A stretch of 64,000 bases of DNA from Spirochaetia bacterium (GTDB lineage: Bacteria > Spirochaetota > Spirochaetia > SP-2023): assembly GCA_965225855.1 (NCBI GenBank), contig CBDDCK010000004.1:64001-128000 (forward strand). Reading direction: 5' to 3'. The translations under genes were made by a program, and so were the position numbers. Of this stretch, positions 26,278 through 62,356 are shown in pieces. The notes under the pieces were generated by a model, which was given only the letters and a program-made list of their open reading frames with translations, was not told the DNA's origin and ran no database searches. Every line of letters starts with the position of its first letter. Within the stretch, counting starts at the first letter, position 1.

Positions 26278-28092
26278 CTACCTTACAACACTAATACTAG
26301 TGCTTAGGTTTTCTGGACTACCAGGTACAAATTCTGCTGCTGTTTCCAGGTTGTATGCACCATTATTATCACTTTTACCCCCCTTAACCAGTATCTTATC
26401 GACTTCCGCTTTTACACTACCCCTTAAAGTAATATTTAATCTTGTTGTACTTGCACTAGAACCTGTGGCTCTGTTTACACCTTCATTTGCGTGCCGGGGT
26501 AATGGGTATCTCTTCTTACCATCACCGGATACAATCGTCAATTTGCTAAAGTCCCAGTCTGTAACTGCTCTCGGTAACCTGACACCTCTAATAGTTAACT
26601 CGCCTCCATAATAATCGTAGACTGCACTGGTGATGCTGGCTACATACCCACTAACGGTAATCGGGTTGCTTGGGTCTTCTGCGCTACCACCTGCAAAGCC
26701 TGCTGCTGCTTCCAGGTTGTATGCACCATTAGCATCACGAACACCTTCCTTAACCAGTATCTTCTCGGCTTCCGCTTTTACACTACCGCTTAAAGTAATA
26801 CTTAAGTAGGTTGTACCTGCACGAGAACCTGTGGCTGTGTTTTCACCTGCAGTTTCGTGCCGGGGTAATGGGTATCTCTTACTACCATCACCGGATACAA
26901 TCGTCAATTTGCTAAAGTCCCAGTCTGCAACTGCTCTCGGTAACTTGATACCTCTAATATATAACTCGCCTGTATTAGCATTGTAGGTTGCACTGGTGAT
27001 GCTGGCTGTATACCCGCTAACGGTAATAGGATTGGTTGTGTCTTCTGCGCTACCACCTGCAAAGCCTGCTGCTGCTTCCAGGTTGTATGCACCATTAGCA
27101 TCACTATCACCATCGTTAACCAGTATCTTCTCGGCTTCCGTTTTTACACTACCGATTAAAGTAATCTGTAAGCCTGTTGCACTTGCACGAGAACCTATGG
27201 CTCTGTTTCTACTTTCAAAACCTACGGCTCTGTTTTCTGGCCGGGGTAATGTGTATCTCTTACTACCATCACCGGATACAATCGTCAATTTGCTAAAGTC
27301 CCAGCCTCTAACTGCTGCTGGTAAATTAGTACCTGTAATCACTAACAAGCCTAAAGTAACATTGTAGGTTGCACGGGTAATTGCGGGGTCGGGTAGCTTA
27401 GGCGATTCATCATCGACTTGTTCGACTTGTTCAGCTTGTTCGTCTTTAGGTTGCTTAGGCGACTGATCTTCGGTTTCAGTCTTAGACTGCTTATCTTCGA
27501 CTTCTTCGGTTTGTTCGGCTTCGGGTAGTTCAGGCGACTGATCTTCAGCTTGTTCAGCTTGTTCGTCTTCAGTTTGCTTACGCGATTGATCATCGACTTG
27601 TTCGGCTGCGGGTATATTCCTAACGGTTAAGTCTTTGGCTGTATCTAAACCCGCCCAACTACCAGAGCTAACGCTAAGCAAGCCTTTTTTTAGACCATTG
27701 CTACCCACCTTGCCATTCAGAGTAGCTTTATCGGCATCGGTAAGTCTAAGCCAAAGTGCTGTGCCATCGCTTTTAATACGGTACTTACCTTGTTCAAGAC
27801 CGTTACTATTTACCCCAGTGGGTTTGGCATCTGCAGTATAGGCACTGAAGGCTACACCATTTGTTCGGCTTCCTACCCTGATAGTTTGGATTTGCGCTTG
27901 TTTCACACTGGTAGGACTTAAGTCAGTACCTTGTACGGTTAACAGAGCCGTAGCAAAGTCGTAGATAGCGTTATTGATAGTCGGCCCAGACGGCCCAGAA
28001 GATGGTGCATCGTCATCGGGTGGGGCGCAGGCCAAGGCCATAAAGGCCAGTAGCCAGGCTACAGGCAATAAAAATAGTTTGAGCTTATACAT
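26278..28092 (-). CDS. Modular repeat surface lipoprotein, copy A
   Basis: GGAGG RBS, MYKLKL...MALAC lipobox; one N-type domain, acidic E/Q/D/K/P linker, three ~120-125 aa repeats (IT.A.Y...WDFSKLTIVSGDG.KRY.LPR...GAYNLE.AA.F..GS.E). Confidence 0.85.
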   Translation of the reverse strand: MYKLKLFLLPVAWLLAFMALACAPPDDDAPSSGPSGPTINNAIYDFATALLTVQGTDLSPTSVKQAQIQTIRVGSRTNGVAFSAYTADAKPTGVNSNGLEQGKYRIKSDGTALWLRLTDADKATLNGKVGSNGLKKGLLSVSSGSWAGLDTAKDLTVRNIPAAEQVDDQSRKQTEDEQAEQAEDQSPELPEAEQTEEVEDKQSKTETEDQSPKQPKDEQAEQVEQVDDESPKLPDPAITRATYNVTLGLLVITGTNLPAAVRGWDFSKLTIVSGDGSKRYTLPRPENRAVGFESRNRAIGSRASATGLQITLIGSVKTEAEKILVNDGDSDANGAYNLEAAAGFAGGSAEDTTNPITVSGYTASITSATYNANTGELYIRGIKLPRAVADWDFSKLTIVSGDGSKRYPLPRHETAGENTATGSRAGTTYLSITLSGSVKAEAEKILVKEGVRDANGAYNLEAAAGFAGGSAEDPSNPITVSGYVASITSAVYDYYGGELTIRGVRLPRAVTDWDFSKLTIVSGDGKKRYPLPRHANEGVNRATGSSASTTRLNITLRGSVKAEVDKILVKGGKSDNNGAYNLETAAEFVPGSPENLSTSISVVR

Positions 28093-28155
28093 AAGCAATA
28101 CCTCCAACAATGGATAAAGATTAACCAACCCATACGGGCTAGTCTGTAAATCCCC

Positions 28156-48328: not shown

Positions 48329-48897
48329 AGCTATCTCCTGTTTTTTGGTTTGATATTAGCCCATTGTGCGTTGGTACAAAACAGACCAATCAAAATGGAC
48401 ATGGTTAGGGTGGTTAGATGGAAGGCAATTCGCCTAACGATAAAGTCTTTCAAGGCAAGATAAACTTCTGCGTTATTATCAAAAAAAATAATGCTTATGC
48501 AATATCCATCGACAGATAAACACAGATTTTCGTAAGTATCACAAAAATCGCTCCAAGCTGATTACCAAACTTAATAAAAGAATCACATTCCTTCACAGTC
48601 AAGATCACGAATTTCTTTGTAAAGAAAACGGCCTTTACCGAGCATACTGTGAAGAATCAAAATCATTGGAACGCTACTTTTTGCCTTGGTTCCATAAACA
48701 AACCAACATACATTCTGCAAAGAGTAAAAATATTTTTACACTACAACGCCCCCGTATTGTACTGACAAACAAAGCATGTGTCTGTAGTTTGCTCTGCGGT
48801 AAGTGCTAGATTTGACTATTTCTTTCAGCGTTATTCGCTGTGTATCTCTATATTACAAGTTCTGTAGTATGCTATGGCTTTACGGTTTCACACCAGT

Positions 48898-49341
48898 TTA
48901 TTTGTTATGCAGTTTAGATGAATGGCAAACTATCTCTTTTAGCAACACGGCTGGCGGAGCAAGTAAGTTTCCCTTAGGTTTCCCTTCTTCAAACTCAACT
49001 TTTGAAGACTCTAAACACCAAGAAATAAAGTCCGGCAACTCAAATAACTTATAGTAAGGCAAACCAGTGACGGCAAACAGCCCCTCTTGCTTACTGCCTA
49101 AAAACCAAAGATGCTGTAATTTTTGCTGAACTTGGTTATTTAATCCGGCTAAAAAATCGCTAGCAAATCGCTCTTGGTGGGTAAACCCATAACTACAAAA
49201 TTGCTGGTAATAAAGTGGCGTTATGAAGTCTTTGCTAAACTCTTCCCAAAAGACCTTTCAAGCAGAAACATTCATTTGCTCCCTAAATTCAGCAAATTTT
49301 ACTAAATTCTCCCGTGTAATTGAACGCTTTTCCATGAACAT
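48898..49341 (-). pseudogene. Hypothetical gene interrupted by an in-frame TGA
   Basis: ATG 49341, MFMEKRSITRENLVKFAEFREQMNVSA*KVFWEEF..., open for 147 codons except TGA at 49258-49260; further broken coding-like sequence toward 48440. Confidence 0.45.
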
Positions 49342-49653: not shown

Positions 49654-52600
49654 TTATGAAGCCGATGGCAACATTTCCAATATCAATTCGACTTCACCAA
49701 CACTCAATTGCGTTGCCCGAGCAATTTCACTACTACTCCATTTTTTACTATGCAGCTGGACAACGGTATTGCGCACATCACTGTCCATCTTACTTCCATT
49801 ATTCACACCCAGAGAACCTCGTTCATTCGGGCGGTTTTTGCGTACAATCGTTTCAACCGTGTGCAAGTTACTTTGTATATTTTCTGACAATTCCAGCATA
49901 CGAGTTTCGGTTTTAGCGATCCATTCGCGCATTTTATCGATCCCCTGACTGTCTGCATGTAACTCGTTAATAGCTTGTTGCATCTCTTGTAGTTCATCTT
50001 GAGTGCTGTGTAACTGTTGCTGCTGCTGTTCTAATTCTTGCTCTAATCCTTTTGCCTTGCCAAAACCCAATTCTAAAGGTTGCAGCTGTTTCTGCATTAC
50101 TTCTATCTTTTGTTCCAAGTCACTCAGATTATCATTATAGCTATGAAGTAAGGAAGCAGCTTCCAATAATTGCTCTTTGCGCTGATCAAGCAATTCCAGT
50201 AAATCACTGCTTTCATTGTATAAATATTCTAGTTTGTCCAAATGGCTTTGATACGATGACATCTTTTGCTGTTGCTGTTCTAAGCTTTCACGCTGTTGAT
50301 ACAGGCTTCCAGACAATTCTAGCACTTGTTCCATCTGCTGTTCCATATCACTTAGTTCATTGCGCCGAGCTAATAAAGTTGCTAGCTGTTCTGAAGTTTT
50401 TTGCCCAATTTGGCTATTTTCATTCAGCGTACTTTGTAACTGCGATATATCTTTTTCCAGTTCACGAAGTAAGTATTCTTTTTCTGCCAATGCTTGCAAA
50501 TTCTCTTGTAATTTTAAACTATCTGGCAAAGCCTTGCGTACATTCGCTAAATTATTCTCTGAAGTATGAATAATTTTATTCAAATCATCGACATCTTTAC
50601 GCATATGGGCCAAGTCATCACGCAGAGCCTTACGTTCATCAGAATTTAATTGGTGCAATTCACGGGTATTCGATAAAATATCTTCATAAAACTGACGGTA
50701 GTTTTCTTCCATTTCCTGTTTCAAAAGCTCAGAACGCTGTCCCACATTTCTTGTCAAATTCTGGCTTAAATTTTCTATAGATGCTTCTTGTTGTTCACTT
50801 AAATTTTGTAAATGTTTTAATTCATCAATTACTCGTTCTCTCTCTCGCTCCATTTTACCCTGTAAGTGTTTATGCAAGTTTTCAAATTCCTTACGCTGTT
50901 TTAACATTTCCTCTTGAGAGGCCAATTGTTGTTCTTGCCAGAATTCATTTCGCTTGTGCTGAGCCTCTTGCGCAGCTTTTGCTTGTTGAGCATTTTGTTC
51001 TGCCAAAAATTTCTTGTGCCATTGCTCCAATTGAGAAATTAAATTCTCTTCCTGTTTTTCTTTTAAATTTTTGCTAAATTCAATGAGACTTTTACTTAAA
51101 GCCTCTTTTTGTTCTTCAAAAGATTCAACAAAATTTTTGCTCCATTGCTCCAAAGCCTTATACTTTTGTTCTAACTTGCTATCAAAATCCTTCTGATATT
51201 CTTTTAATAAATCATTACTTTTCTGGTCGCACTCCAGCAAACCTTGCTGATGTAGTATCGCCTGATCTTGAGCACTTTGTTCAACTTGAGCTAACTGGTA
51301 ACCGATATTACTGCGCAATTCAGTAATAGAATATTCAATCTCTTTGCGCAACTCCACCGTATGATCGGATAAATTTTTATTTAAAGAATCCATGCGTTCA
51401 TTGGCATCTTGCTCAAATTCTTGCAACTGTCCTAACACCTTAGTTTGCTCAACATGCGTTTCTTCGATACGGGCCTGTTGCTCTTTTTGCTCATGTTTAA
51501 ATTGCTCTAATAGCGTATCAAACTCTTCTTTTGCATTGGAAAAATTTTGAGTCAAAGTTTCCCATAATTTATCTTTTTCTTGCTGTGTTAGAGCTAATTC
51601 ATTTTCTAAAGTCTGTTGTTTCGTTTGTATCAATTTTTTCTGAGCAATAAAATGTGTCTCACTTTCCTTCCCCAAAATTTCAAAATGCTCTAGCCAACTT
51701 TTTAAACGCTGTTGTATCTTTTCTTGTACTTCACTTTCAAATTTTGCACCTAAAGATTCCAAAGCCTCAAGCTGTTTGACACGAATTTGTTCCATTTCCT
51801 GCCTCTGCTCTTCCAAACGGGCTTGCCAATTCTGTTGTTGCTGTCTTTGTTCTTCATATTGGCTGGACAACTGGGTTGTAACCAGTTCTTTATTTTCTGC
51901 CAAATCTTTACGATTATCACTCAGCCAATCCTCCCAAACTTGATTTTGTTGTTCCCGAGCATTTTTCTGTTCGCTCAAAAAAGATTGAAGTTCTTTGCGG
52001 TTTCGTACCAACTCCAGTTGAGTATCCTGATGCGATTGAACCTCCCTACGCCCTTCATCTAGTCGCTCCTGCCAACATTCTAAAAAATTGCGCTGCCTCT
52101 GATGATATTCTTCCAGAGCTTCTTCTTGTTCATGCCAAATTTTATCGAGGTGTTCCAACGCTTCCTGACGCTGCTCTACTCTACGCTGTAGTCCCTCCTC
52201 TGAATTTTGGCCTACCTGTTCCAATCGCTCATGCCAATGTTTATCAGCCACATTTAAGTTTTCAGAAAAACGCTCGTGCAATTTTTGCAGCTTTTCATAA
52301 GCTTTTTGCTGATCTTCTTCCATTGAGCCATGGAGTTCTTGCTTTCGCTCTGCAATTTCATCGTAAATAGTTTCAAATTCATCACGGGCATTATCTTGAA
52401 AATTTTTCAAATAATTTTCTTGACGCTGCAGCATTTTTTGCTCTGCAAGCTTAACATTTTTCTTAACAATACCAACTTCAGCCTCTGCCGAAACTTTAGC
52501 ACTGCGCAGGTATTGCAATATTTGTTTTTGCTCTAAATCCCTTTTTTTCTGTAAATTACTGGCATTTCTCAAAGCTTGTTGCAGACGATTCCAATTTTGT

Positions 52601-54306
52601 AAACTACCATTAATTAACTCTTGATGTTTTACTTCTTTATCCTGCTGCTCCCGAGCTTGCTGCTGCAAATCATCTTTCAATTTACGATAAGCTTCTTGCT
52701 CTTTTTCCAGCCCTTCTAGCCTTTTCTCTTCCTCTTCGCGATAACGATGTTGTTCAGCCCGCTGTAATTTTTTTAACTCATGTAGATCATTTTCCGTCTT
52801 TTCAATATTTAAAGCTAATTGTCCCGTAATTTCTTTCCATTGATTATCGATTTTCTCACTATCATGCAATGCTATACGCAAATTGCCATCTAAGACCGTA
52901 TATTTTTGTTCGGCCCTTTGTAACATTCCATCAAGTTTACACGCATACTCTTCGACTTGAAGCAAATTCCCTGCTAAACGGGCTTCCCTACGGCGGTATT
53001 CATCTTGTTCATCTGCCGAGTTACAATCGTCTAACAATTTTGTTAATTTTTCTTTAAGGCCAGCATCTTTTTGAAAAAGTTGTAACAATTGCTCTCGGCA
53101 CTCTTGCGCAATTGCAGCTATTTCACTCTCCTCACCCAGCAAATGGGATTTGTTCAAACCTTGAAAACAAGGATTTACTAAGTTTAAACTCCAAAACAAA
53201 CTAATACCTTTGTCCCAAAAAGCATCAACTTTTTCTTGATCTTCTGGAAAAACTTCACGCAAAACACTGACAAAAGCCCTTTGTAGTTGGCGAATATGCA
53301 ATCCACCACTACAGGCGTGGCCATTGACAAAGCTTTGAACCAAACGCTGATTATATAGGCCACTATCATTAATCTGCCATTCAGCCAAATGAGTAAAACT
53401 CAACTGCCATCTTTCACCCTTTAGATTGCAAGGCTGGTAAAGATAATTTAATTTTCTCCATTGCGGTAGAGTTTTAAATAAATCTCCTATACTTTTTTGT
53501 CTAATGATATGGCTTTGATTTAAATGAATTTCCAAACCCGGATATAAAGCAGCAATTTTACACAATACGTCAAACAATTGTGGAATTCGTATCGATTGTT
53601 TACCAAAAATTTCAGAATCAGGCGTAAAACGAATAAAAGTACCATTTTCCTTATCACATCGGCCACGGCGATCCCTTACAACACGCCCTCCGGAACTTTC
53701 TATTTCAGCAAATTTATGTTCTTGATACGATCGCAGCAAAAAACGACTGCTCAAAGCATTGACTAATTTTAAACCTAAACCACTAAGGCCTTCACAAAAT
53801 TGAATTTCCACACTATTATTTTTTGAGTTTTGCCCTAATTTTTGAATTTTTGTACGCAACTGCGTATGCGGAATGCCCCGCCCATAATCACGAATCGTAA
53901 TGGTTTCAGAACTACAAAGCACGTCAATAATCTTGCCTTGTCCTTTGCTGTATCCTTGAAGGTATTCATCAATACTATTATTGAGCAATTCTTTAAATAG
54001 CACGGTAACACCACTATGCCATGTTTTTTGGTTGCCCAAATTATAACGCAAATTTTGGCTCCCAGGCATATCCGTAATAGAAGTATATAAGTAGTTAGGA
54101 TAATGCTGGCGCAAATGCTCAATAATAGAGCTAGGCCTATTAGCTCTTACGCTGTGGATACCCGATTTAGACACAGCTGCCGTGGAAGCTGGGCTGGAAA
54201 CAGAAGAAGTTTCTGTTTTTAGTGGCACTTTCGGCACTAAAGCTAAAGGGGGCATGACAAAATCCCTACCATGTTCAACGGAAGTATTATCAGAGAGGTC
54301 TTTCAT
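49654..54306 (-). CDS. ParE/GyrB-like GHKL ATPase-transducer fused to SpiroCoCo-like coiled coil with C-terminal HTH
   Basis: KELLNNSIDE, IRDYGRGIP, GLSGLGLKLVNALS, GTFIRFTPDSEIF, SFVNG and PCFQGLNK motifs, then ~1100 aa coiled coil and VVQLHSKKWSSSEIARATQLSVGEVELILEM. Confidence 0.8.
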   Translation of the reverse strand: MKDLSDNTSVEHGRDFVMPPLALVPKVPLKTETSSVSSPASTAAVSKSGIHSVRANRPSSIIEHLRQHYPNYLYTSITDMPGSQNLRYNLGNQKTWHSGVTVLFKELLNNSIDEYLQGYSKGQGKIIDVLCSSETITIRDYGRGIPHTQLRTKIQKLGQNSKNNSVEIQFCEGLSGLGLKLVNALSSRFLLRSYQEHKFAEIESSGGRVVRDRRGRCDKENGTFIRFTPDSEIFGKQSIRIPQLFDVLCKIAALYPGLEIHLNQSHIIRQKSIGDLFKTLPQWRKLNYLYQPCNLKGERWQLSFTHLAEWQINDSGLYNQRLVQSFVNGHACSGGLHIRQLQRAFVSVLREVFPEDQEKVDAFWDKGISLFWSLNLVNPCFQGLNKSHLLGEESEIAAIAQECREQLLQLFQKDAGLKEKLTKLLDDCNSADEQDEYRRREARLAGNLLQVEEYACKLDGMLQRAEQKYTVLDGNLRIALHDSEKIDNQWKEITGQLALNIEKTENDLHELKKLQRAEQHRYREEEEKRLEGLEKEQEAYRKLKDDLQQQAREQQDKEVKHQELINGSLQNWNRLQQALRNASNLQKKRDLEQKQILQYLRSAKVSAEAEVGIVKKNVKLAEQKMLQRQENYLKNFQDNARDEFETIYDEIAERKQELHGSMEEDQQKAYEKLQKLHERFSENLNVADKHWHERLEQVGQNSEEGLQRRVEQRQEALEHLDKIWHEQEEALEEYHQRQRNFLECWQERLDEGRREVQSHQDTQLELVRNRKELQSFLSEQKNAREQQNQVWEDWLSDNRKDLAENKELVTTQLSSQYEEQRQQQQNWQARLEEQRQEMEQIRVKQLEALESLGAKFESEVQEKIQQRLKSWLEHFEILGKESETHFIAQKKLIQTKQQTLENELALTQQEKDKLWETLTQNFSNAKEEFDTLLEQFKHEQKEQQARIEETHVEQTKVLGQLQEFEQDANERMDSLNKNLSDHTVELRKEIEYSITELRSNIGYQLAQVEQSAQDQAILHQQGLLECDQKSNDLLKEYQKDFDSKLEQKYKALEQWSKNFVESFEEQKEALSKSLIEFSKNLKEKQEENLISQLEQWHKKFLAEQNAQQAKAAQEAQHKRNEFWQEQQLASQEEMLKQRKEFENLHKHLQGKMERERERVIDELKHLQNLSEQQEASIENLSQNLTRNVGQRSELLKQEMEENYRQFYEDILSNTRELHQLNSDERKALRDDLAHMRKDVDDLNKIIHTSENNLANVRKALPDSLKLQENLQALAEKEYLLRELEKDISQLQSTLNENSQIGQKTSEQLATLLARRNELSDMEQQMEQVLELSGSLYQQRESLEQQQQKMSSYQSHLDKLEYLYNESSDLLELLDQRKEQLLEAASLLHSYNDNLSDLEQKIEVMQKQLQPLELGFGKAKGLEQELEQQQQQLHSTQDELQEMQQAINELHADSQGIDKMREWIAKTETRMLELSENIQSNLHTVETIVRKNRPNERGSLGVNNGSKMDSDVRNTVVQLHSKKWSSSEIARATQLSVGEVELILEMLPSAS

Positions 54307-54550
54307 TGTATACTCATCTATTTTAAGAATTAATTGGAAAAATTATCAGGTTGTCTACACAAATTGAATTTAACGAACATCCAGACAAATTTGGCAGATT
54401 GTAAAGGAAAACGCAATAAATGTCATAAAAATTTAAATTGTAGCCAGAAAATAATCAAAAACTTCATAATAAAAACCTTGGCATAATTTTAAATAATAAT
54501 AACTCGGTATTTTTGGAATTCTATTTCATTTACAATTTTTCAATAGATAC

Positions 54551-60154: not shown

Positions 60155-60217
60155 AGGGCTCTATGCACTAGCCCGTATGGGTTGGTTAATCTTTATCCAT
60201 TTTTGGAGGTATTGCTT

Positions 60218-62356
60218 ATGTATAAGCTCAAACTACTTTTATTGCCTGTAGCATTGCTACTGGCCTTTATGGCCTTTGCCTGCGCACCACCCGATGACGA
60301 TGATCGATCTTCTGGGCCGACTATCAATAACGCCATCTACGACTTTGCTACGGCTATCTTAACTGTACAAGGTACTCACTTAGGTGGTGCGCAACAAGCG
60401 CAAATCCAAACCATCACGGTAGGAAGCCGAACAAATGGTGTAGCCTTAAGTTCCTATACTGCAGATGACCCAGCCACTGGGCCAGATAGTCGCAGTCTTG
60501 CAAAAGGTAAGTACCGTATTAAAAGCGATGGCACAGCGCTTTGGCTGAAACTTACCGATGACGATAAAGCTACTCTTGAGGCCAAGGTGGGTAGCGATGG
60601 TCTAAAAAAAGGGTTGCTTACTAGCACTGGTGCTTGGGCGGGTTTAAATACAGCCAAAGACTTGGAAGTTAGTAATGTACCCGAAAATAAGCAGTCTAAA
60701 GTATCCGATGACAATCAGCCATCTAAGCAAACTGAAGACGAACAAGCTGAAGAAGTCGAACAAACTGAAGAAGACGAACAAGACGAACAAACCGAAGAGC
60801 AGTCGCCTAAGCAACCTAAAGACGAACAAGACGAAGAAGAGTCGCCTAAGCAACCTAAAGACGAACAAGTCGAACAAGCTGAAGAAGAGTCGCCTAAAGC
60901 TGCAATTACCCGTGCAACCTACGATGTTGGCACGGCGCTGTTAACCTTGCAAGGTACTGACTTAGGTAGTGCAACCCAAGCGCAAATCCAAACTATCACG
61001 GTAGATGGCCTAGCCTTAAATTCCTATTCTCCAGATGACGATGCTACTGGGCTAAATAGTCGTGGTCTGGCAAAAGGTAAGTACCGCATGCATAGCGCTG
61101 GCACAGCGCTTTGGCTTTACCTTACCGATACCGATAAAACTACTCTGAATGGCAAGGACGGTATGGATACCAATGGTCTAAAAAAAGGGTTGCTTAGCGT
61201 TGGCTCTGGTGCTTGGGCGGGTTTAAATACAGCCAAAGCCTTGGCCGTTAGTGGAAACCCACCCGCAATTACCCGTGCAACCTATGATGTAAATACGGGT
61301 AAATTAGTGATTACAGGTACTAATTTACCGTCAACAGTGTATGATGGCTGGGACTTTAGCAAATTGAGGTTTGTCGCAGGTAATGGTCGTAAGAGTGCCC
61401 CATTATTACGGCACCACCCATATCCAGAAAACTTCGCCATAGGTTCTGCAGGAAGTGCAACAAGCTTAACGATTACTTTAGGGGGTAGTGAAAAAAGGAA
61501 AGCCGATGCTATATTGGTTAACGATGGTGATAGTGATGCTAATGGTCAATACAACCTGGAAGCAGCAGCAGGATTTGCAGGTGGTAGCGCTGGAGACACA
61601 ACCAATCCTATTACCGTTAGTGGGTATACAGCCAGAATCACCAGAGCAACCTACGATGCTAATACAGGCCAGTTAGTGATTGTAGGTTACAATTTACCGA
61701 AAACAGTTGCAGACTGGGACTTTAGCAAATTGACGCTTGTATCCGGTGATGGTAAGAAGAGATACACATTACCCCGGCACTCAACCACAGGTGCAAACAC
61801 AGCCACAGGTTCTCGTGCAAGTAGAGTCAGCTTAACGATTACTTTAAGCGGTACTGTAAAAGCGGAAGCCAATAAGATACTGGTTAAGAATGGTGATAGT
61901 GATGATAATGGTGCATACAACCTGGAAGCAGCAGCAGAATTTGCAGGTGGTAGGGCTGAAGACACAAGCAACCCGATTACCGTTAGTGGCTACGTAAGCT
62001 TGCTCAACACCGTATCATATATAACTCATAGAAGCGTGTTAAATATTAGTGGTAGCAGGTTACCGACAGCAGTTGCAGAGTGGGACTTTAGCAAATTGAC
62101 GCTTGTATCCGGTGATGGTAAGAAGAGATACACATTACCCCGGCACTCAACTACAGGTGCAAACAAAGCCACAGGTTCTCGTGCAAGTGCAACAAGCTTA
62201 AATATTACTTTAAGCGGTATTGTAAAAGCCAAAGTCGAGGCTATACTGGTTAAGTCTGGTTTTGGTGATGCTAATGGTGCATACAACCTGGAAGCAGCAG
62301 CAGAATTTGTACCTGGTAGCGCAGAAGACCTAACCACTAGTATATTCAAGTTATAA
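60218..62356 (+). CDS. Modular repeat surface lipoprotein, copy B
   Basis: GGAGG RBS, MYKLKL...MAFAC lipobox; two N-type domains separated by an acidic SPKQPKDEQ linker, then three WDFSKL/YNLEAAA repeats. Confidence 0.85.
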   Translation: MYKLKLLLLPVALLLAFMAFACAPPDDDDRSSGPTINNAIYDFATAILTVQGTHLGGAQQAQIQTITVGSRTNGVALSSYTADDPATGPDSRSLAKGKYRIKSDGTALWLKLTDDDKATLEAKVGSDGLKKGLLTSTGAWAGLNTAKDLEVSNVPENKQSKVSDDNQPSKQTEDEQAEEVEQTEEDEQDEQTEEQSPKQPKDEQDEEESPKQPKDEQVEQAEEESPKAAITRATYDVGTALLTLQGTDLGSATQAQIQTITVDGLALNSYSPDDDATGLNSRGLAKGKYRMHSAGTALWLYLTDTDKTTLNGKDGMDTNGLKKGLLSVGSGAWAGLNTAKALAVSGNPPAITRATYDVNTGKLVITGTNLPSTVYDGWDFSKLRFVAGNGRKSAPLLRHHPYPENFAIGSAGSATSLTITLGGSEKRKADAILVNDGDSDANGQYNLEAAAGFAGGSAGDTTNPITVSGYTARITRATYDANTGQLVIVGYNLPKTVADWDFSKLTLVSGDGKKRYTLPRHSTTGANTATGSRASRVSLTITLSGTVKAEANKILVKNGDSDDNGAYNLEAAAEFAGGRAEDTSNPITVSGYVSLLNTVSYITHRSVLNISGSRLPTAVAEWDFSKLTLVSGDGKKRYTLPRHSTTGANKATGSRASATSLNITLSGIVKAKVEAILVKSGFGDANGAYNLEAAAEFVPGSAEDLTTSIFKL

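Follow-up and report, generated by a model that had tools for sequence, protein, structure and literature searches.

What does an ATPase module of topoisomerase type do at the head of a giant spirochaete coiled-coil protein, and does it still act on DNA? The question is raised by a minus-strand open reading frame (ORF) at positions 49654-54306 of the window, by which we mean the whole stretch of 64,000 nucleotides analysed here (Spirochaetia bacterium, assembly GCA_965225855.1, contig CBDDCK010000004.1, positions 64,001 to 128,000). An earlier reading of the bare sequence, hereafter the original prediction, had described one uninterrupted ORF of 1550 residues joining a ParE/GyrB-like ATPase to about 1100 residues of coiled coil and a terminal helix-turn-helix (HTH), and had proposed an ATP-gated clamp of MORC or SMC type, or a link between nucleoid and cytoskeleton. 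The ORF (product P0001) is indeed one stop-free frame. As developed below, the ParE origin of the head, the SpiroCoCo nature of the C-terminal part and the reality of the fusion are confirmed, the homology proposed at the junction is not, and the DNA clamp is weakened.

Architecture of the fusion

The architecture of the 1550-residue fusion is established, with the following parts (all on the minus strand):

49654..54306, minus: whole ORF P0001, 1550 residues; ParE-type ATPase module, helical rod and SpiroCoCo_C
54307..54320, minus: conserved block 5' of the ATG, likely ribosome-binding site (four genomes aligned)
54136..54306, minus: residues 1-57, low-complexity variable leader in place of the N-terminal strap of ParE (Y5/I10 equivalents lost)
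53512..54135, minus: residues 58-265, GHKL ATPase domain, with a disordered insert at about 75-96
53017..53511, minus: residues 266-430, transducer (S5-fold) domain
50626..53016, minus: residues 431-1227, acidic helical rod without proline; orthologue lengths differ by in-frame blocks
49678..50625, minus: residues 1228-1543, SpiroCoCo_C (NF047515), in collinear alignment with the anchored paralogue (20-22% identity)
49675..49782, minus: residues 1509-1544, three-helix HTH-like tip with an acidic last helix, SVGEVELILE

The start codon is backed by the block ATAG..GAGTATA.ATG, conserved in the four aligned genomes, and the leader that follows shows 18-33% identity among orthologues.

The head is of ParE/GyrB type, as had been proposed. 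Pfam HATPase_c matches residues 102-230 with 28-30 bits (cut-off 26.4), and a weak DNA_gyraseB match covers residues 318-421 (E 2.6e-4). The motifs singled out in the original prediction lie at E106/N110, D140-P146, G173-G178, H68-Y74 and L384-K386. An AlphaFold2 model of residues 51-479 (predicted local distance difference test, pLDDT, 81.6; predicted template modelling score, pTM, 0.77) consists of a GHKL domain and a transducer leading into a long helix. Its best structural matches are ParE/GyrB ATPase fragments, with Z scores for ParE of 31.2 (1s16) and 30.9, versus 20.3 for MutL, 14.3 for SMCHD1 and 13.4 for MORC2; because 9 of the 20 rows in the alignment behind the model are ParE/GyrB, likeness to these is partly expected. 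The absence of TOPRIM holds as well: Pfam Toprim has no match in the fusion, the TOPRIM motifs EGxSA and TD[AP]DxDG are absent from all seven full-length copies scanned, and TIGR01055 gives the fusion 74 versus 723 bits.

The opposite end of the protein belongs to SpiroCoCo, a family described in NCBIfam by an N-terminal model (SpiroCoCo_N, NF047514) and a C-terminal one (SpiroCoCo_C). The latter matches residues 1228-1543 at 133.7 bits (cut-off 125) and the orthologues at 135-154 bits, in line with the family named in the original prediction. The rod measures about 1050 residues, and residues 431-1490 are rich in E, Q, L and K with two prolines. If straight, residues 436-1490 would span about 157 nm, and the rod is acidic (212 D+E versus 151 K+R). 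Heptad periodicity along it is mixed and no more than modest (the best periods of seven windows are 3.46-3.68), so that the long coiled coil of the original prediction reduces to a helical rod, probably a coiled coil. In a model (pLDDT 73, pTM 0.26), the C-terminal 328 residues form a single long helix followed by the three-helix tip.

The genome also encodes a membrane-anchored SpiroCoCo protein of 893 residues. The junction sequence of the fusion (YRRREARLAG...) had been likened to the start of SpiroCoCo proteins just after their membrane helix; this likeness could not be detected. SpiroCoCo_N has no match on the whole fusion at E<=0.1, nor on residues 426-636 at E<=1, and segment profiles of the anchored paralogue perform no better on the fusion than reversed controls over its N-terminal two thirds. 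The anchored paralogue itself matches SpiroCoCo_N at E 3e-17, under the cut-off. Homology between the two proteins is detectable only across the last 300 residues or so. That the membrane anchor is missing was correct: the maximal 19-residue hydropathy is 0.97-1.56 in 10 of 10 fusions, versus 2.16-2.76 in six of six anchored SpiroCoCo proteins. The fusion resembles conventional SpiroCoCo proteins in its C-terminal 316 residues, long helical rod, HTH-like tip and confinement to spirochaetes; it differs in having neither membrane helix nor NF047514, in its 370-residue ATPase module, in the replacement of a glycine of the tip, and in being a second copy alongside the conventional one in each of the four genomes that carry it.

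Conservation of the fusion

The same architecture is found in all four genomes of the genus (this genome, G000, and G001-G003), 59-62% identical and at non-syntenic loci. Of 251 genomes of the class searched with a profile of the module, four were positive, all from this genus, and the other 247 negative; the order's two remaining genomes contain an anchored SpiroCoCo only. All four genus genomes have both SpiroCoCo genes, fused and anchored, and G000 encodes a separate ParE (690 residues) and GyrB (642 residues). In protein databases we found 10 fusion clusters, 43-86% identical to P0001 (45-86% by alignment), of which two are partial and one is divided between two ORFs of a single contig (P0008 and P0180); eight full-length proteins are intact. 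One member is named 'ATP-binding protein, partial [Spirochaetota bacterium]' at NCBI. Among 1.8 billion representatives, three score at least 540 bits, and the next is an ordinary ParE-like protein at 164 bits. No shorter form of this ATPase subfamily was seen among 8000 candidates scored (best 150 bits), and a search for related loci yielded no fusion among genome contigs and only matches of 27-33% identity among metagenome contigs. No RNA data set was among those listed as containing the sequence.

An assembly chimera, or an accidental fusion in neutral decay, would be in keeping with the split metagenomic copy. Against it stand the intact ORFs in four of four genomes and in the eight full-length proteins, and contigs that bridge the junction, of an identical and of an about 85% identical sequence, although the best runs may be the source of this very DNA. 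Furthermore, of 12 GHKL/transducer pair comparisons, the five with a finite dS gave a dN/dS of 0.06-0.16, synonymous sites being near or at saturation, and the GHKL domain is 67-75% identical among orthologues versus 51-61% for the rod. Such values show the fusion to be under strong purifying selection, and we regard chimera or decay as so improbable as to be already refuted.

Residues kept and lost in the ATPase module

We compared 11 copies of the fusion using Escherichia coli GyrB numbers, of which E42, N46, H116, Q335, K337 and Y5 follow PMC4159350. Twelve positions are invariant in all copies: E42, N46, D49, E50, D73, R76, G77, K103, G114, G117, G119 and G164; in the fusion's own numbering, invariant residues include E106, N110, D140, R143, G144, K162, G173, G176 and G178. 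This provides the residue set of an active GHKL enzyme, namely the catalytic Glu, the Mg-binding Asn, the Asp of the G1 box, the lid glycines and the basic finger of the S5 domain. The equivalent of T165 is kept in 9 of 11 copies, and that of K337 (K386) is K in 10 and R in one. Conversely, the equivalents of Y5, I10, R22, D45, G101, Y109, Q335 and T336 are changed in every copy. The original prediction of an altered strap and QTK loop is right for the strap and for the first two residues of the loop, whereas the loop's lysine is retained. According to PMC4159350, K337 contacts the gamma-phosphate and Q335 is a switch coupling hydrolysis to DNA. To judge from these residues, the fusion has kept the chemistry within a subunit and has lost both the strap between subunits and the glutamine that couples to DNA, so that the chemistry would be retained without the lock between two heads. 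In addition, at 20 positions where ParE is conserved the fusions have settled on a different residue, invariant among them; these include W283, W300, C171 and E172.

May the module instead be a degenerate ATPase, whose fold is kept as a scaffold for oligomerisation or for docking (onto topoisomerase IV, gyrase or the membrane), nucleotide being at most structural? The universal changes at the strap, R22, D45, G101, Y109 and Q335 speak in its favor, as does the title of PDB entry 1EI1, which states that dimerisation activates the GyrB catalytic center; the 20 refixed positions are those expected of a new interface, and TOPRIM-less ParE derivatives of 335-390 residues with decayed lids are common among the matches to the module. 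However, the lid and QTK loop of such derivatives differ freely from one protein to the next, whereas in the fusion the residues from E42 to G119 listed above are invariant and the K337 position is always basic, over proteins down to 45% identity. We hold such a scaffold to be rather unlikely. The head is probably nucleotide-binding and active, with a new interface and pre-dimerised by the rod: the fusion very likely binds ATP, and it would, with somewhat less assurance, also hydrolyse it. Here ATPase activity, dimerisation and partners are all inferred.

Origin of the ATPase module

The fusion shares the motif EH[IL]R with ParE of the type found in spirochaetes, Planctomycetes-Verrucomicrobia-Chlamydiae (PVC) and Bacteroidota, to which it is 27-32% identical. 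The spacing from the G1 box (DxGRG) to the lid GxG is 30 residues in eight of eight fusions and in such ParE, and 38 in GyrB. Approximately unbiased (AU) tests could reject no placement among the three tried: with the ParE of the genus (p 0.10), with GyrB (p 0.14) or within ParE of the spirochaete/PVC type (p 0.12). As these tests leave the donor unfixed, we used only indel and motif evidence for the origin. In quick trees, whose alignments dropped rows lacking the motif (14 in one tree, 4 in another), the fusion stem measures 2.1-3.0 changes per site, and the fusion was once placed beside stand-alone ParE derivatives. Among members of the genus, identity is 66-75% for the module, 72-75% for ParE and 82-86% for GyrB, against about 2 changes per site on the fusion stem. 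A long stem together with a ParE-like rate within the genus indicates that the module changed fast, then came under renewed constraint.

TOPRIM-less ParE derivatives of 335-390 residues are frequent among the matches to the fusion module, and a gene of this kind, whether native or acquired, may have served as the intermediate to the fusion. They are cut at the same place as the fusion module, as is P0142 (see below); unlike the fusion, they have variable catalytic motifs and no rod, and none is close (best 164 bits, versus at least 540 for fusions). Taken together, these sequences show that the module has been repeatedly freed from topoisomerase.

The stand-alone ATPase-plus-transducer proteins deserve mention in their own right. 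Devoid of TOPRIM, with a decayed lid and QTK loop, they are scattered over the ParE tree (P0037, P0038, P0043, P0048, P0057, P0081, P0082, P0095 and P0105; also P0110, P0111, P0127, P0133, P0134, P0145, P0153 and P0166), and the ESM Atlas holds clusters of the same kind of 365 and 374 residues. This looks like a repeated, undescribed truncation of parE, although some may be contig-end fragments. Another protein, P0142 (768 residues), combines a ParE-like ATPase module with ankyrin repeats; its lid, GLSGLGLKLVNALSS, is the same as that of the fusion, with which it does not group in the tree. Finally, the ParE of the genus (L001:6352-8424, that is, G000:C5:618351-620423) carries in its GHKL domain an acidic insertion of 55-90 residues that neither other spirochaete ParE nor the fusion has.

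Comparison with DNA-bound ATPases

Compared with ParE itself, the fusion has the fold (Z 31) and the identity, motif and spacing given above; it differs in the loss of TOPRIM, tail, strap and Q335 and in the insert at 75-96. With TOPRIM and tail absent, no strand passage by the fusion is expected. The layout of a GHKL+S5 module followed by long helical segments is that of MORC, paraMORC and SMCHD1 (PMC2292703), and it speaks for a MORC- or SMC-like clamp on DNA, or a nucleoid-cytoskeleton link, acting through the terminal HTH. Yet the fusion derives from a type IIA topoisomerase and not from the MutL/MORC branch (Z 31 versus 13-14). The GhXhhpXXRhl motif of the MORC S5 domain, as given in PMC2292703, occurs in 0 of 11 fusions, and the four genomes offer no restriction-modification context: read by eye, the neighboring genes include no helicase, methylase or nuclease. 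We saw neither an SMC/Rad50 signature nor CxxC in seven of seven fusions, a GxxxxGKT in the QTK loop of one being due to chance; there is no hinge match, and SMC models reach 20-27 bits for cut-offs of 567-1087. By these signatures the fusion is not a MORC, not an SMC and not a topoisomerase.

Two further observations favor a DNA clamp: the ATPase module has a higher isoelectric point than ParE (6.5-9.0 in 11 fusions, versus 5.2-6.0 in the four ParE of the genus), and the tip model weakly resembles resolvase-type HTHs. On the other side, the rod and the last helix are acidic, all 11 copies lack the strap by which a topoisomerase gate closes, and the SpiroCoCo family tracks the flagellar gene flhA, as described below. 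The clamp or nucleoid linker of the original prediction is thus weakened, and we deem it improbable.

The C-terminal tip and flagella

DUF6115, the family to which we take SwrB itself to belong, is the best Pfam match in 11 of 12 SpiroCoCo tails and passes its cut-off in three, no fusion among them; the tip of the anchored paralogue does pass. Profile positions 45-66 map onto residues 1524-1545 of the fusion with the same E/L spacing. Foldseek on the C-terminal model returned nothing at E<=0.001, the resolvase-type likeness being at E>=0.09, and a tblastn search of plasmids with the tip gave no match. The terminal HTH of the original prediction stands as a three-helix, HTH-like tip, one that its profile matches suggest to be closer to DUF6115/DUF2802 (SwrB/FipA-like) than to DNA-binding domains, and that likely binds protein rather than DNA.

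In PMC11620751, the DUF2802 domain of FipA is described as binding FlhF, residues G110 and L129 being needed; FipA stripped of its membrane anchor is non-functional, and no FipA is reported in spirochaetes. By profile mapping, with FipA numbered as in that source, G110, E126 and L129 correspond to K1522, E1538 and L1541 of the fusion, the latter two being present in seven of seven fusions. Short genes encoding a transmembrane (TM) helix, a coil and an HTH follow flhF-flhG-(fliA)-fapA in five of the six loci fetched, the sixth locus not covering that side. They match SpiroCoCo_C (4/5 at E<=1e-8), and DUF6115 passes its cut-off in four of five. These short genes share position and topology with SwrB-like factors (SwrB topology and role: bioRxiv 10.1101/2021.04.30.442225; grouping with FlgW: PMC13277936). 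This genome has such a gene at C5:187538-188329, and flhF is also present. FipA, the SwrB/FlgW-like proteins and the spirochaete DUF6115 gene behind fapA have in common with the fusion a coiled region and a small three-helix tip; the fusion is ten times longer, soluble and equipped with an ATPase, has lost the G110 equivalent and stays under the DUF6115 cut-off.

Across the phylum, SpiroCoCo_C occurs in open frames of about 450 to more than 9000 residues. A first sample of 80 genomes, all FlhA-positive, offered no contrast. In a second, SpiroCoCo_C was present in 58 of 60 FlhA-positive genomes, the two misses being 81% and 93% complete and in 260 and 360 contigs, versus 0 of 10 FlhA-negative genomes (five families, at least two orders). 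It was also found in none of 41 genomes of one of these orders, FlhA having been checked in two of the 41. In a tree of 20 tails, which includes one translated in an incorrect frame (L081), the fused and anchored copies of the order stand apart from other spirochaetes (support 89), at a point where long branches meet.

Possible function

We tentatively favor, at rather less than an even chance, a SpiroCoCo paralogue that is soluble, has borrowed an ATP switch and works alongside flagellar or polar machinery. The protein would be a lineage-specific SpiroCoCo duplicate in which a ParE-type ATPase and transducer, without TOPRIM, occupy the place of the membrane anchor. It may form a cytoplasmic parallel dimer or oligomer, held together by its rod, which may reach about 157 nm. 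Uncoupled from DNA strand passage, the head would bind ATP and probably hydrolyse it slowly, serving either as a reversible anchor or as a switch that depends on nucleotide. The tip would bind a flagellar or cell-pole protein, of the FlhF or export-apparatus type as with FipA and SwrB, possibly a different one from that of the anchored paralogue. For a role in flagellar or polar organisation as such, we see the chances as even. We may also hypothesize that the topoisomerase ATP gate was exapted as an ATP-driven head, acting as switch or motor, for a 150-nm rod by which periplasmic flagellar motors are positioned or organised from the cytoplasmic side, with dimerisation provided by the rod rather than the strap; this bolder version is doubtful. 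What weight these readings leave falls to other roles.

Several observations weigh against a flagellar ATP switch. Of 137 columns invariant in ParE, 54 are lost in every fusion, including lid G101 and the strap, which makes ATP turnover uncertain. The tip of the fusion remains under the DUF6115 cut-off (21.6-25.2 versus 27), and DUF2802 is weak (E 0.02-0.25). The glycine equivalent to G110 is N or K in seven of seven fusions, though 17 of 19 other spirochaete tails and five of six anchored copies of the order retain it; with it lost, the partner of the fusion may differ from FlhF. The failure of anchor-less FipA would sit badly with a soluble FipA-like protein. The FlhA-negative genomes may not all be independent of one another, and one metagenomic copy of the fusion is split. 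Lastly, the fusion gene has no flagellar neighbors in any of the four genomes; its neighbors there are presumably bioB and an ABC binding protein, nadC and an rlpA-like gene, an rseP-like gene and a degP-like gene.

Both modules are known, and their combination appears not to be described in the literature searchable, as the original prediction had supposed: among the sources searched, outside of which most subscription journals lie, no paper names SpiroCoCo and none reports a spirochaete fusion of coiled coil and GHKL ATPase. The fusion is of interest as a natural case in which a topoisomerase ATPase module leaves DNA topology and is re-fixed under a new constraint. Since intra-subunit chemistry appears kept and the strap and DNA-coupling glutamine discarded, it offers a test of the minimal needs of a GHKL gate. 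It also gives a first enzymatic handle on SpiroCoCo, a family of nearly all flagellate spirochaetes sampled, and the joint loss of SpiroCoCo and FlhA makes a flagellar role directly testable. Its range is narrow, one genus among the genomes searched. If the motor-head version were true, this would be a GHKL ATPase acting in motility, and not on DNA or as a chaperone.

Other observations

Scans for promoters and terminators in the window stayed at chance level (16 versus 17.7 and 6 versus 4.0, respectively), and Rfam has no match anywhere in it. Just downstream of the fusion gene, a frame of about 150 codons broken by one stop (window 48880-49340, minus strand) is single-copy in the genome and possibly a decayed gene. 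In G001, a GC-rich array of repeat units, open in several frames, lies downstream of the fusion gene (L015:5195-6660).

The other SpiroCoCo_N matches in this genome are no relatives, but short proteins built of repeats that end in a C-terminal hydrophobic tail. Expanded short repeat proteins of this description (VDKRFEQ/AMQQ) lie at G000:C5:52901-54514, 100452-101171 and 1104888-1113673; we take them to be reminiscent of the Bdr proteins of Borrelia. Close to the anchored SpiroCoCo gene are six tandem genes for lipoproteins of about 500 residues (G000:C5:1649356-1659042), whose N-termini are, we presume, subtilase-like. A multi-copy, lipoprotein-like family of 600-720 residues, with repeated 'ITRATYD' modules and an acidic spacer rich in Q, E and K, is represented at positions 60182-62356 and 26278-28128 of the window and at G000:C5:54745-56754 and C5:98036-100099.

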